From the NCBI GenBank assembly GCA_014728035.1, contig WJMJ01000062.1, positions 1-64,000 on the forward strand: DNA of 64,000 nt, given 5' to 3'. Source of the stretch: Promethearchaeota archaeon (lineage in GTDB: Archaea; Asgardarchaeota; Thorarchaeia; Thorarchaeales; Thorarchaeaceae). A program made the translations under genes and the position numbers. How positions within the stretch are numbered: the first letter of the stretch is position 1; the number at the start of each line of letters is the position of its first letter. Shown here piece by piece: positions 1-32,096 of the stretch. The notes under the pieces are model-generated. The model was not told the DNA's origin and ran no database searches. It saw only the letters and a program-made list of their open reading frames with translations.

Positions 1-146
1 CCACCCGTGATAACGAGAAGGGCAAGCATAAAGGCCCACTCCTTCCTTCGTATCACCGAGTGTGGAACCGTCTTGACATACACTATCACCAGTACCAGTA
101 CAAAGCCGAACACTAGTACAGATATCAGAGTCCACAGGTCGAACAT
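1..146 (-). CDS. Integral membrane protein, N-terminal part (runs off the window); candidate partner/immunity gene of the giant protein
   Basis: Not in the ORF track. ATG at 146-144 lies 1 nt after the TAA of the giant ORF. Manual translation is MFDLWTLISVLVFGFVLVLVIVYVKTVPHSVIRRKEWAFMLALLVITG..., i.e. TM helix, basic loop, start of a second TM helix; open to position 1. Confidence 0.75.
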   Translation of the reverse strand, partial: MFDLWTLISVLVFGFVLVLVIVYVKTVPHSVIRRKEWAFMLALLVITG

Positions 147-147
147 C

Positions 148-3100
148 TTATCCACTCCATCGTGCCTGCATGACAGGAATTCGCATGGCCACCATTGAGA
201 GCTGAAGTCCTGTTAAAACTATCTGCAATCCAATTCGTGTTTCTCGGGCTAAGTAATTAAGGCTGATGCCTTTTCCGATATACGAATTCATTCGGCCGAC
301 ACTTCTGAGGGCCGCAGAAGTTATAATGCTCATGGACATGACACCAGTAAAACCATATGCTCCACCTATCGGTCTCTGAGCTGGATCTACAGCCATCATG
401 GAATCAAAGGCCATCTCAAAGACTACTTCACCAACTAGGTCAGAGTACTTCACAAGCCCATCAACCAAGCTCGACAGTAGATTGACTCCCAAATAATGAA
501 TCCTTTGAGTAGCACTTCGCTGTAGTACACGAGAGGTTGTATCGGTCCAAGACAGCAAACGATTCCTAACTCTCTGACCAAGATTCATGTATGACTTGGT
601 ATTCATATCAAATGTGTGGATATTACGTCCAATACTACGTATTTTTGACACAACGCCAGTTAGTCCCATACTGATCAGATCAGCTAGGAGTTCCTGTAGA
701 AACAGATTCCAACCACGGTTGCTTGTTATCTGCCACAATGAGAAATTGCCCATAGTGCTATCAGAGAATACAGGACCATCACCAAACGTGTCTGTGTAGG
801 TATTGATGATATCCATTCCACCTAGTAATAGGTGATCAAACATGGACCTTCCTGTAGTCGCACTGATTATCAATTCTGAACCCCAAAGTGCAGTTATCCC
901 AGCAGTCACAGGAGCGAAACTCACCATGGTTGCTCCAAGAGTAATCATGGCTTTTCTCACCTCAACACTATCTGCTTCTTGTTGTTTCAAAATATCCAGA
1001 TATCGACCTATGTAATCATGGTCGTATTCCATCCGTAATGCATAGGAATCATAATACAGGAGATTTCTAGCAATATCTACCAAAGAGGTCACATTATCGG
1101 GATTCTTTCTACATACCATGACATCCATTTGGGGAACTGTGTTCACCAGCTCCGCATTGGAATTCCAAATTGGTGTCCCATTATTCATCCAATTAGAATG
1201 GTACTTTGTGATGTCGATGGTGATAGTAGTGTTTGTAGGAGTTAGAACAAAGGTCTCATTGTAGAGCTGTCCAAAGAGTGCGAAACGTAGTTTCATAAAG
1301 AATTCATCAGGTGTATCAGGACCCCACTCGAAATTGAATGTGACCTGTTTTCCTCTGACTACCTGATGTCTTGCGTATTGACTCTCCCCAGTCCACCAAT
1401 GAAGACCTGGCACATCAAGAATGTCCTTTGGTGTTTCGTCATCACCCCAAGATGAGGTCTCGTAGATAGTTGGACGTACTTGCAAGGTTTCATTCTGCAC
1501 ATTGAGAGATTGGACAAGGGGTTGTCGTTCTTCACCAACTTCTGTATAATTATACTGGCCATCACTAAACCAATCAGCCCCATCAATATCCAATACCCAA
1601 TTCTCTTCAATGTAGGAAGAAAGTTCGCCATCTCCACAACGAGGATGAATCATAGAGTCAATATCCACTACAGGACCATATCCAAGACTATTTGCAAAAT
1701 AATTGCTTCCTGCAACACCCATGTACAACGGCCCACCAACAATTGTAGCTAGAGATCCTCTTAGTGCTTGACCGTGAAGTTCATCAGCCCATCCTTCAGT
1801 ATTCCAGACATCGATTCTATCCTCAACACTGTAATCAAGAGATACCTCAGACACGCACTCATCAAGTAGTGAGTGTCCCCACATGTTCATGTGGTTGTAT
1901 CGCGATATAGTGTCAAGATAGGTCTGGCATAGAGTCGCATTTCTCCAGATGTGGTCCTGCGATATAACAGAGGATAGACCAAAACTAAGAACCCCTAGTC
2001 CTTGTCGATCAGCCTGAAATGTAATTGGGCTTGCAAAGCTAGATGGAGGGCCTTCGTTTATCGTTGCATAGTCCAGATATTTTCGATCTGCTTGTTTCAA
2101 ATAAGATGTGTCAATCGACCAGATTGGCCTATACTCTCTATCGATATCTCCTAGTATCATCTGACCTGTTGATGTTGGTGCAGAGCCAGCAGAACTATGA
2201 TGTACTGTTGATGTGATTCCGGGTATCCAGAAAGAGAAACCATCATCATGATCCAAATCTATGAGATATTGTCCATTTACGTTAAGCACTTGCCAATAGA
2301 ACTTTGTAGCACAGTGACTAGACACATCGTAATCTGGAGTTGGATTGAATGATAGCCGATAGTTCCATGGGTTGATACCATCAGAAGACTTGAAGTCAAC
2401 ACGACTTAGAAGCGGATTGGTCGGTGATGTCATATGAAGATTGGTAGAGTCTGAAGCTTCTAAGGTAGGCGATGAGATGGGAATATTGTTACTTCCATCC
2501 CAACCTAGAATAGAAGCTGAGATATGATCATTCCAGACATCCTCCGAAGACTCAACATAATAATCGAACTCCTGTTGATGGTGTGGTAGAACTACACGTT
2601 CCATCGAAATATCTTGAAGAAGGCCACCATCAGGAGTTGGAAGAAGCATTGGAAATTCGACCCCTTGATGAGTTCGGACTGAAAATTCTTTGATAATGCT
2701 GATCCTCGATATAGAGAACATTTTGTTGTTATAATGGAAATCAGTAGAGCCAACCACATAATCTCGTTCACATACTGCGACGTTTATAGTCACATCAGTG
2801 ATGAAGAAATCATATAGCATATCAAACCTACTAAGATCTATCTCAAATAGGACAGTCTTAGGGTCTCCAGTGTCAATGAGTGGAGAATGGATATACCATG
2901 TATAAGGTTCTACATCATTGATGAGCCTTGTTGAATTTGCACGAGTTGTATTGTAGACATAATATCCACCCATAGTTAGATAGATGCCTCCATAATGATT
3001 CTCAACCTCACCAGTGTAAGCTGGGTCAAAGGGTGGACATTCATCAGGGAATCTGCCTTCCACCCGAATCTTTGTGCTTCCAGGAGGAACAACAAACTTG

Positions 3101-30075: not shown

Positions 30076-30449
30076 AGGAATTCTACTCCCAACCCGAACA
30101 CCAATAGACAGCTATGATGGATTGATATGACATACTCCTTCATATGGACCTACTTTACGGTGTTGCTTGAAATTTCGTTGTGACGCAATAATATAAACCA
30201 CTATCGATAACTTATCATCCATAATATAATACCTCTATTCAATGTACGGAGTTGTTATAGAACCCCACTAATGTAGATATGTTATAATAACCCGTAGAAA
30301 GAATAAACGAACGCTATTTACTCCAGTATCCTGTTTTGTTTGCTGATTCTTTTCACCCCAAGAGGCAAGATTAGAAAGAAAATGCCTCATTAGTCATCTT
30401 CTACGAGCTTAAAAGGGAAGGATATCAAGAGAGTATTGGTGGAGTCCGT

Positions 30450-32096
30450 TTGGTTGACACAGAAGTGGTATATCTCGTGAGTGGACTGGGTCCAACAGTG
30501 GAATTCAATGTCGTGGATGTCGAATCTGACTCATTTCGACTCTCTATCCTTCGTTCTTCTACGGAATTGCCAGCGGGTAGGTTGGGCTTAGTACATATAG
30601 ATCTAGAACCCCTCAGAGAGTGTAAGGATTTGGAAAAGATAGATCTGTTTGGGAACTTTTTTGAGTCAATAGATCTATCACCTTTAGCTTATTGTGAGTC
30701 TATACAAGAGGTCATCCTGGAAGAGAATGAACTCACCGAGATAGACCTCACTCCACTCTCTGCATGTAAGAATCTTAGGAAGCTAGAGATAGATGAAAAC
30801 AGACTCGAACAGGTGGACCTAGAACCCATATCATCCTGCGAAAGACTTCGAAGTCTCGGTCTGGCATCCAATCGGCTAACTGAGATAGACCTGTCACCTC
30901 TGGTATCGTGCACGGACCTTACTTACCTTTTACTCAGTGGAAACAACCTACATCAGATAGACCTGTCACCTCTGGCCTCATGTAAGAAGTTGAAGTTGGT
31001 TGGCTTAGAAATAAATAAGTTAGAACATATCGACTTGTCTTCTCTATCGTCATGTCCTGGGCTGTATCTTCTGGGTCTTAGTGATAATTTTCTGGATAGC
31101 TTTACCCTTGACGCACTAACAGGATGCAAGGACGTAGAGAGGGTGTCCATAGATGGTAATTCTCTATCATATATTGACCTATCCCTTGTGTTTTGTTTCC
31201 CCCAGCTAAAGAAATTTTCAATTTCAGACCGAGAGGGCAACCTACCTGAACTGAGATACATCTTCAGACCAAGTATGCCGCCAGATATTGAGGACGATTG
31301 GTACAATAGATTGACATGGAAGGATATCCCCACCATAATAGAGCAAGATGGCTGGAAGACACTCTCCAATCAACTCGTGATGAAGATACAAGAACTATCA
31401 TATCTCAATAGACTCTTTCTCCAAGGAGAAGTATTGACACAGTTGGATTTAGAACATTTTCGAATTCTCGATGCAGACCTGAGAGAGGTCATGAGAAACA
31501 TCCCGGATCACAGAGATGTACACTCTATAAGACGGGAATTTCGGAAACGACTCATTCCGCTACTGCAGACTCAGATAGAAAAAGGGGGCCCAACTCATCT
31601 AATAGATATCGAAGACATCACAAGGGACGAGGGAGCTAGGCTTCTTGCACCCATATTGCGTTCACGTATGGAAGAAGACAGACATCTCTATGTCCTCAAA
31701 CAAGAGAGAACTATTGAAGGTGAATGTGAAGTTGTCTACGACCTCACTCCACTCTATTTCACTGCTCATGGATATCAACTTGTCATCAACCTCGTTGAGA
31801 GTGGCATTCTTCAAAGGCAGCAGGGGTTACGATTATCTGCAAATCAATTTCACCAGATAGATGAACAACTGACTCAGAACGATATAGAAATAGAGATGTC
31901 CCAGTCAATACAGCCATTGCATACCGTGATATCAGAGGCACAAATGTATTACATGTTAGATTGGAACAGAGAGATAACTCTCAACAAGTATTATGTGAAC
32001 CCATTCTTCGAGTCATATACCAATTACTTCTTCCAACCTGCTAGTGCAGACGCATTTCCAGACCCTCCAGAGCATTTACGACAAGCGCATCACTAG
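30450..32096 (+). CDS. Cytoplasmic leucine-rich repeat protein (nine 24-aa LRRs plus a helical C-terminal domain)
   Basis: Repeats IDLxPLxxCxxLxxLxLxxNxLxx; TTG start after GGTGGAG; no signal peptide; divergent from the giant gene. Confidence 0.85.
   Translation: MVDTEVVYLVSGLGPTVEFNVVDVESDSFRLSILRSSTELPAGRLGLVHIDLEPLRECKDLEKIDLFGNFFESIDLSPLAYCESIQEVILEENELTEIDLTPLSACKNLRKLEIDENRLEQVDLEPISSCERLRSLGLASNRLTEIDLSPLVSCTDLTYLLLSGNNLHQIDLSPLASCKKLKLVGLEINKLEHIDLSSLSSCPGLYLLGLSDNFLDSFTLDALTGCKDVERVSIDGNSLSYIDLSLVFCFPQLKKFSISDREGNLPELRYIFRPSMPPDIEDDWYNRLTWKDIPTIIEQDGWKTLSNQLVMKIQELSYLNRLFLQGEVLTQLDLEHFRILDADLREVMRNIPDHRDVHSIRREFRKRLIPLLQTQIEKGGPTHLIDIEDITRDEGARLLAPILRSRMEEDRHLYVLKQERTIEGECEVVYDLTPLYFTAHGYQLVINLVESGILQRQQGLRLSANQFHQIDEQLTQNDIEIEMSQSIQPLHTVISEAQMYYMLDWNREITLNKYYVNPFFESYTNYFFQPASADAFPDPPEHLRQAHH

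Follow-up and report, generated by a model that had tools for sequence, protein, structure and literature searches.

In pore-forming colicins and the ionophoric C-terminal toxins of CdiA (CdiA-CT), the C-terminal domain is helical and contains a Gly/Ala-rich hydrophobic hairpin, while a membrane immunity gene lies directly downstream. The pore-forming colicin domain is a ten-helix globular bundle that buries this hairpin, and the immunity proteins have 3 to 4 transmembrane (TM) helices. The VARTIG system of the Thermococcales joins a large surface protein with a variable C-terminus to variable downstream genes; it is organized like polymorphic toxin systems, and its function is unknown according to its authors (Makarova et al. 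2021, PMC8416519). Toastrack domains (DUF4097/DUF2154/DUF2807), of which PDB 4QRK is an example structure, belong to Lia/PSP envelope-stress systems, where they are tied to membrane-proximal complexes and located C-terminal to TM segments (Ravi et al. 2024, PMC11237479). Uncharacterized giant genes are on record in Asgard archaea (PMC8813620; PMC11573180), and the “aloposon” giant genes (Otus and Ephialtes) form a tandem pair encoding proteins of 3,000-6,000 amino acids (aa), with a downstream tRNA integration site and an upstream ParA/MinD gene set (PMC8813620). Here we analyze a giant gene at the end of a contig of a Promethearchaeota archaeon of the Thorarchaeaceae (GCA_014728035.1, WJMJ01000062.1), together with the genes that follow it in its relatives. 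The window is the first 64 kb of this contig (C28), which belongs to a genome bin (G000) of 4.33 Mb in 173 contigs, estimated to be 97.9% complete and 8.5% contaminated. An earlier note, written from the sequence alone, had taken the locus for a candidate tethered filament with a toxin-like tip of the CdiA or Rhs kind.

A giant surface protein and its C-terminal module

The giant gene is a single uninterrupted frame of 9,975 aa (148..30075, reverse strand), with an ATG start and zero internal stops. Kyte-Doolittle (KD) peaks above 1.6 are limited to aa 7-25, 406-424, and 430-448, which from the sequence are a predicted signal peptide and a TM hairpin, as the earlier note had it. Two other Thorarchaeota genera of the same family encode giants that are collinear with this protein over nearly its full length at 25-37% identity. 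One (G047, contig C25), truncated by the contig start at the equivalent of aa 9554, spans at least 9,749 aa; the other (G045, contig C81), truncated by the contig end at the equivalent of aa ~8693, spans at least 10,138 aa. The signal helix, the N-terminal domain, and the TM hairpin are common to all three. The source is a metagenome-assembled genome (MAG) with the contamination given above, and one unrelated contaminant contig was found in the bin, which would favor a mis-assembled or chimeric frame. Yet such an artifact is very unlikely, to the point that we give it almost no weight, because near-full-length collinear giants occur in two further genera, the search for DNA tandem repeats in the region returned none, leaving no source of assembly collapse of that kind, and base composition is even along the 29.9-kb open frame. 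The best-supported conclusion is that the giant is a conserved, lineage-specific (Thorarchaeota) surface protein with Sec-type export and an N-terminal tether, ending in a new helical module of membrane type that has class-specific partner genes in relatives, in line with the earlier proposal of a giant tethered surface protein in an Asgard archaeon.

Between aa 2001 and aa 9500, the net charge is -25 to -70 per 500-aa block, and most blocks contain 4-11 N-x-S/T sequons. The first ~2,000 aa are less acidic and carry 0-5 sequons per 1000 aa in all three giants. Self-comparison revealed a sole clear repeat array (aa 6795-7480), the remainder being mostly non-repetitive. The searches of Pfam (5,000-aa and 1,000-aa pieces), NCBIfam, and PDB sequences gave zero matches above threshold. 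Thus, of the acidic adhesion or rod modules claimed before, the acidity stands, while “adhesion” and “rod” were an impression.

The far end of the protein carries the module on which our analysis centers. An AlphaFold2 (AF2) model of aa 9540-9975, built with 20 homologues, reached a predicted local distance difference test (pLDDT) score of 70 and placed an FN3-like sandwich ahead of an all-helical region with long helices. Foldseek matched this model to FN3 domains with a probability of ~1.0, over the sandwich part only. For the helical part, searches of Pfam, NCBIfam, and PDB sequences gave nothing specific, those of PDB structures with Foldseek, of VIA in its wide mode, and of the atlas returned generic helical hairpins (best Z of 8.1, the level of helix noise), and there was no colicin among the listed fold matches of the module model at its pLDDT of 70. 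These helices are Gly/Ala/Ser-rich, as had been noticed, and only moderately hydrophobic in the window protein (KD below 1.6, marginal for membrane insertion), while those of the homologues reach 1.7-2.2, in the TM range. An exhaustive, profile-free comparison of the last 876 aa with 1.84 billion representative proteins retrieved 61 clusters. Within the family, 14 of 61 genomes contain the module; of the 16 genomes searched from the rest of the order or phylum, none does. The proteins carrying it range from 900 to at least 3,817 aa and are collinear with the giant over its last 2,000-2,450 aa. Judged by sequence, this helical module is rare, previously undescribed, of a predicted membrane type, and defines a family of its own. 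We found no description in the literature of the module or of its pairing with a partner gene, which agrees with the earlier statement that no described system was recognized.

Contigs break inside or just after the module in at least 11 cases, including the window and the giants of G047 and G045. These breaks fit strain-level variability at the module, a reading that would explain why assemblies repeatedly end at the giant locus.

Tail classes and their partner genes

We surveyed the downstream genes at about 45 loci, taken from GTDB genomes and from metagenomes. Two classes of tail follow a shared first half of the module, and many matches span this half only. In about 18 loci, a class I tail, the class of the window protein, is followed within ~20-40 nucleotides (nt) by a gene for a ~250-aa protein with a TM helix and a beta-helix (type A). 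In 5 loci, all from a single clade, the next gene encodes a ~210-aa multipass membrane protein (type B). In class II (10 loci), the shared sequence stops at the equivalent of aa ~9818, where the alignment of the class II protein P0022 with the window protein ends, and a different hydrophobic stretch of 125-190 aa follows, with the motif H-x-x-x-G-T-x-F-L-F-x-L-G-A-I-G-S...G-D-x-G and without the class I motifs. Larger proteins can terminate in a class II tail as well; one of them, P0030 (1,553 aa), is collinear upstream with the window protein. Nine of the 10 class II loci have a type C gene next (-72 to +37 nt), encoding soluble proteins of 264-312 aa without TM helix, 23-42% identical to one another, for which Pfam gave a single weak bacterial-PH hint. 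In two divergent family members, the next gene encodes a NosD-type beta-helix surface protein or nothing relevant. Among the loci examined, class I tails were never paired with type C, nor class II tails with types A and B. Since both pairings coexist inside G023 and inside G059, the association of tail and partner does not follow from phylogeny alone. The co-variation of tail and downstream gene, a check suggested by the earlier note, is thus positive at the level of two tail classes in relatives. The helical module in its two tail classes and partners B and C amount to three or four new protein families.

Type A is the commonest partner, and not a small multipass immunity protein. Its model (pLDDT 91.4) shows an N-terminal TM helix followed by a beta-helix, which superposes on PDB 4QRK over 194 of 212 residues (VIA Z of 21.1, root mean square deviation of 2.5 Å; Foldseek E = 3.7e-9). 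On this model, type A has the predicted fold of a Toastrack domain, which is thereby met in a new context, linked to the end of a giant surface protein. None of 15 type A members matched Pfam DUF4097, DUF2154, or DUF2807 at E values up to 0.1. Basic residues ahead of the TM helix and conserved N-x-S/T sequons suggest that the domain faces outward. Type A genes also occur in tandem, with two or three diverged copies per array (49-77% identity), and about 12 genomes without a detected module have strong type A matches.

The module itself occurs in truncated form. At unrelated loci (L042, L044, L045, L027, L030, L014, L017, and L019), we found 5'-truncated module remnants of 127-583 aa beside full-length partner open reading frames (ORFs). 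They have no signal peptide, their homology begins directly after a stop codon, and they are scattered with their partners instead of being arrayed behind a full-length gene. In one of them (L030:5680-6876), a 399-aa frame joins a nucleotidyltransferase-like fragment (GS...SDIDLL) to a class I module at MEYD, with a full-length type A gene next; from its sequence, this fusion looks like a recombination scar. At another locus, an ORF of 389 aa (L027:7520-8686) beyond a 260-aa remnant and its type A gene weakly resembles the giant at aa 7753-7837 (E = 7.6e-4), suggesting that further fragments of giant genes are scattered in these genomes.

Such remnants, the tightly coupled downstream gene, and the class-level co-variation would all be expected of a classical polymorphic toxin, in which a conserved stalk bears interchangeable, unrelated C-terminal toxins, each with a small membrane immunity protein (CdiA, Rhs, MafB). 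Language-model look-alikes of the tail point weakly in the same direction: the best scored 0.91 with low recognition, and clusters of PT-TG and of Tle1-like effectors of the type VI secretion system scored 0.87-0.88, below the reliable range, so that these are leads only. We nevertheless regard this explanation as improbable, and the hypervariable tip that it implies is largely refuted. Mean pairwise identity within class I is 44% in the tail, 46% in the first half of the module, 42% in the FN3 domain, and 20% in the linker (aa 9819-9869), and close relatives show no abrupt drop from high to zero identity. There are only two tail classes, deeply split, with 23-26% identity even in their shared part; by sequence, they are probably old subfamilies and not recent cassette swaps. 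Known toxin, pre-toxin, and demarcation motifs were not found, nor did the fold searches reveal a toxin or pore-former fold. Lastly, the partners are 250-310 aa long, one of them with a Toastrack fold.

The same survey bears on the plainest alternative, in which the giant is an adhesin or matrix protein (halomucin- or Bap-like) with incidental neighbors, possibly on a variable surface island or mobile element. The genome does encode many large proteins (37 stop-to-stop frames exceed 1,500 aa; one on contig C37 reaches 5,063 aa, several are truncated at contig ends, and the protein of 9,975 aa is the largest), and surface proteins are found nearby, with DUF11 here and NosD beta-helices in relatives. 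Giant genes have been reported in Asgard archaea, some of them on “aloposon” elements (PMC8813620), and contigs break frequently at the locus. A class-specific downstream gene in more than 30 loci is not incidental, however, the protein is mostly non-repetitive, and the gene has neither a giant partner in tandem nor a tRNA within 15 kb, the closest tRNAs being at 45.7-46.2 kb. We consider this alternative unlikely.

Possible roles of the module and its partners

We tentatively favor, at somewhat less than even confidence, a reading in which the locus encodes a long tether with a membrane-inserting tail and, in its relatives, a cognate protective or identity partner, the two forming an effector–immunity-like or self-recognition pair. 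The giant would be exported via its Sec-type signal and held at the cell by its N-terminal domain and TM hairpin, and a stretch of about 9,000 aa, acidic, mostly non-repetitive, and probably glycosylated, would reach away from the cell. At its far end, the FN3-like domain would present the Gly/Ala-rich helical module as a putative membrane-inserting element, which may engage the membrane of a neighboring cell in trans. The partner encoded by the small following gene may bind or neutralize the tail and so protect or mark the producer together with its kin. Insertion into the membrane, activity in trans, and protection by the partner are inferred from this arrangement. Because the N-terminal anchor is already present, the C-terminus is not needed for tethering. 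The remnants with intact partners, the partner arrays, and the genomes with type A genes and no module point to a conflict or recognition cassette.

Several observations weigh against this reading. Helices as hydrophobic as those of the homologues are expected to enter the membrane of the producer itself while Sec exports the protein. Searches of the tail with Pfam, PDB sequences, Foldseek, VIA-align, and the atlas recognized neither a toxin nor a pore-former domain, and the class I tail is not hypervariable. The low identity between the classes leaves room for the co-variation to reflect two ancient paralogous subfamilies instead of cassette swapping. Type B-linked class I tails are very close to some type A-linked ones. 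Partner genes themselves are split or broken in L015, L037/L038, and G046, and MAG fragmentation may hide modules in the genomes where type A alone was seen. Type A also has a probable origin outside the pairing. Most family genomes conserve an operon (L088-L094, in G002, G016, G021, G042, G012, G041, and G075) of two ~310-330-aa multipass proteins, a ~215-aa protein resembling helix-turn-helix (HTH) proteins, and an overlapping ~256-aa gene for a TM helix plus Toastrack domain, which by sequence appears to be the housekeeping ancestor of type A. Since type A derives from a housekeeping Toastrack, orphan copies need not be immunity genes. This housekeeping gene had no match in the genome of the window.

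The window itself adds to these points. Its contig ends 147 nt beyond the stop of the giant gene, at position 1, and cuts the downstream gene. A membrane-protein ORF starting 1 nt after the stop had been described; its ATG and TM helix are there, and what remains is merely a fragment of 48-51 codons, depending on an alternative GTG start at 155, comprising a TM helix, an RRK loop, and another hydrophobic stretch. This fragment matched none of partner families A, B, and C, its 48 aa had no homologue among longer proteins, and no close relative of the giant's C-terminus was found in metagenome contigs. Neither type A, B, or C genes nor a second module or a class II tail were found in the genome of the window. 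A weak type A match on its contig C6 (2,309 bp) was rejected: it is a 591-aa fragment ending in a C-terminal domain of the gliding-motility/type IX secretion system (T9SS) type, a Bacteroidota-like contaminant. The downstream gene of the window may represent a fourth partner type.

In the main rival reading, the helical module would be a multi-helix stop-transfer anchor in the producer's own membrane, the giant being held at both ends or mainly C-terminally and the partner being a structural or signaling protein at the membrane, by analogy with the Lia/PSP envelope-stress modules. We see this as possible, if doubtful. The TM-range hydrophobicity of the homologous helices would suit such an anchor, as would a tail about as conserved as the rest of the module and the existence of just two tail classes, both helical and hydrophobic with a similar last helix. 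The partners can be read in the same way: type A has a fold that the literature places at membrane-proximal PSP/Lia complexes (PMC11237479), an HTH regulator and permeases accompany its housekeeping relative, and type C looks cytoplasmic. A second anchor is not called for, however, where a conserved N-terminal one is already there, and the helices of the window protein are marginal in hydrophobicity. Intact partner ORFs beside decayed modules, diverged arrays, and orphans are likewise unexpected for a purely structural partner.

The reading as tether, tail, and partner can be taken further. Thorarchaeota would then extend tethers of ~10,000 aa, possibly hundreds of nanometers long, whose helical tips insert into the membranes of kin, competitors, or syntrophic partners, and the partner proteins (an outward Toastrack, a multipass protein, and a cytosolic PH-like protein) would serve as immunity or identity factors. 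This extended version is rather unlikely. If true, the archaeal lineage closest to eukaryotes would possess a contact-dependent system for membrane targeting or self-recognition that has not been described before. Contact, recognition, and antagonism between Asgard archaea and their neighbors are central to models of eukaryogenesis and molecularly almost blank, and the giant locus provides a testable candidate. Even as a mere anchor, the module would show how these cells attach their largest proteins to the membrane.

Locus features, neighboring genes, and comparison with known systems

The features of the giant gene and of its two adjacent genes are listed in Table 1.

Table 1. Coordinates of the giant gene, its parts, and the adjoining genes in the window
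Feature	Position	Strand	Remarks
Giant ORF (P0001)	148..30075	-	9,975 aa; stop codon 148-150; collinear giants in G047:C25 and G045:C81
Signal peptide-like helix, aa 1-27	29995..30075	-	KD 2.14 at aa 7-25; kept in both other giants
N-terminal ~370-aa domain	28876..29994	-	Possible alpha/alpha-toroid, prenyltransferase-like, sub-threshold
TM hairpin, aa 406-448, short basic loop	28732..28860	-	KD 2.37 and 2.02; also in G047 and G045 giants
Less acidic, sequon-poor region, aa ~480-2000	24076..28638	-	Contains HxHP motif near aa 1740
Asp-rich TSP3-like (calcium-binding type) repeats, aa ~6440-6560	10396..10758	-	TSP3_bac 23.7 bits, cut-off 25
Internal repeat array, aa 6795-7480	7636..9693	-	About six ~115-aa immunoglobulin (Ig)-like units; self-BLAST
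C-proximal ~2,450 aa, collinear across wider family	151..7578	-	P0002-P0005 and others, 31-37% identity
FN3-like beta-sandwich, aa 9572-9680	1036..1362	-	AF2 model m833eae60ff62, predicted strands at model residues 33-140
Helical module, first half, aa 9681-9818	622..1035	-	Common to both tail classes; MEYDxDYI, Gly/Ala-rich hydrophobic hairpin
Variable basic linker, aa 9819-9869	469..621	-	Class divergence point; pLDDT <50; 20% mean identity within class I
Class I tail, aa 9870-9975	151..468	-	GEVVFEMAFD, ERPxGG, terminal RIPV helix; tail hidden Markov model t1 E 1.4e-42
Downstream membrane-protein ORF, fragment	3..146	-	First 48 codons; ATG 146-144, 1 nt past the giant's stop; cut by contig end
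Divergent leucine-rich repeat (LRR) gene	30450..32096	+	548 aa; LRR_8 5.8e-20; no signal peptide or TM helix; C-terminal half of no assigned kind

Upstream of the module, we obtained sub-threshold hints of a prenyltransferase-like toroid, of TSP3-like Asp-rich repeats near aa 6467, and of Ig-like fragments. Pfam Prenyltrans matched the N-terminal domain with E = 0.008 in the window giant and E = 3.2e-5 (23.9 bits, cut-off 26.5) in the G045 giant. Elsewhere, the genome encodes an 877-aa protein with a signal peptide (G000:C61:24872-27502, forward strand), whose N-terminal domain is a paralogue of the giant's aa 39-323 (27% identity, E = 2e-9). Homologues of the region at aa ~480-2000 were found in 3-8 of 60 family genomes, and language-model look-alikes of aa 1560-2060 yielded nothing usable. 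We rejected a JAB/MPN metalloprotease, a family with a conserved HxH...S..D metal site, at this place: homologues aligned across aa ~1740 (A7) do not keep the HTHP, and Pfam JAB is absent. No TM segment separates the sequon-poor from the sequon-rich parts of the giants. The piece that holds the TSP3-like repeats (aa 6401-6800) resembles many stretches elsewhere in the genome and gave a CglD-like partial match.

The divergent LRR gene had been presented as part of the system. The gene is as described, without signal peptide or TM helix, and its linkage to the giant is weak. The G045 giant has an LRR gene immediately upstream, encoded on the same strand and differently built, and another is three genes off in L022; there is none beside the G047 giant, and the genome of the window has about 25 LRR ORFs, so that an association is suggestive at best. 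Adjoining the LRR gene, a 599-aa protein (32602-34401, forward strand) has a C-terminal DUF11 domain (E = 1.6e-14), a weak DUF1573 match, and a surface or Ig-like look. NosD or right-handed beta-helix surface proteins adjoin family members in L020, L021, and L022, once directly downstream and with a C-terminal TM anchor. The window also encodes an archaeosine-tRNA transglycosylase-type protein with DUF5591, TGT_C2, and PUA domains. At 40679-42979 (forward strand), a 365-aa protein combines a phycobilisome-like N-terminal domain (E = 6.7e-6) with B12-binding_2 and B12-binding domains, and the gene for a HisKA/HATPase histidine kinase comes 3 nt after it; from their domains, the two may form a cobalamin- or light-linked sensor pair.

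Compared with known systems, the locus resembles several of them in part. With polymorphic toxins (CdiA/CdiI, Rhs, MafB; Zhang et al. 2012, PMC3482391), it shares a very large exported protein whose C-terminal end is followed by a small cognate gene, a gene that in relatives co-varies at the class level and lies directly downstream, as well as 5'-truncated C-terminal remnants with partner genes elsewhere and partner arrays. Unlike them, it has a conserved tail in two deep classes, a Sec signal only, and no pre-toxin or demarcation motif or known toxin fold; its partners are a Toastrack, a multipass, or a soluble ~290-aa protein, and we found no near-identical stalk switching to an unrelated tip. 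VARTIG is similar in organization. Its variable part is a C-terminal Ig domain shuffled by recombination, whereas the tail here is helical and hydrophobic and falls into two old classes; it belongs to another lineage, and the window protein is ten times longer. The module recalls pore-forming colicins in its Gly/Ala-rich hydrophobic hairpin and in the membrane-protein gene downstream. No match to colicin pore domains was found among the listed fold matches or by sequence, and the partners are not of the 3-4-TM kind, except possibly type B and the fragment in the window. The single N-terminal TM helix and beta-helix of type A are those of Lia/PSP Toastrack proteins of the LiaG type (PMC11237479). 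Type A differs from these in being linked to the end of a giant and not to PspC or LiaF, and the genome of the window has no type A.

The tandem arrangement of “aloposon” giants (PMC8813620) is not seen here: there is a single giant, its upstream side has no tRNA before 45.7 kb, and its downstream side lies beyond the contig end. The protein shares with other giant surface proteins (halomucin, RTX/Bap, and the Asgard giants; PMC8813620, PMC11573180) its size of ~10,000 aa, its acidity, its Ig/FN3-like and Asp-rich calcium-type motifs, and its predicted surface location. In the repetitive adhesins among these (RTX, Bap, halomucin), repeats form most of the protein; the window giant is mostly non-repetitive, with no Pfam repeat family above threshold, no RTX or type I secretion (T1SS) signal, and no Laminin_G_3 domain. 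What sets it apart from all of them is its TM hairpin near the N-terminus, along with a C-terminal module that is unique and paired with a cognate gene.

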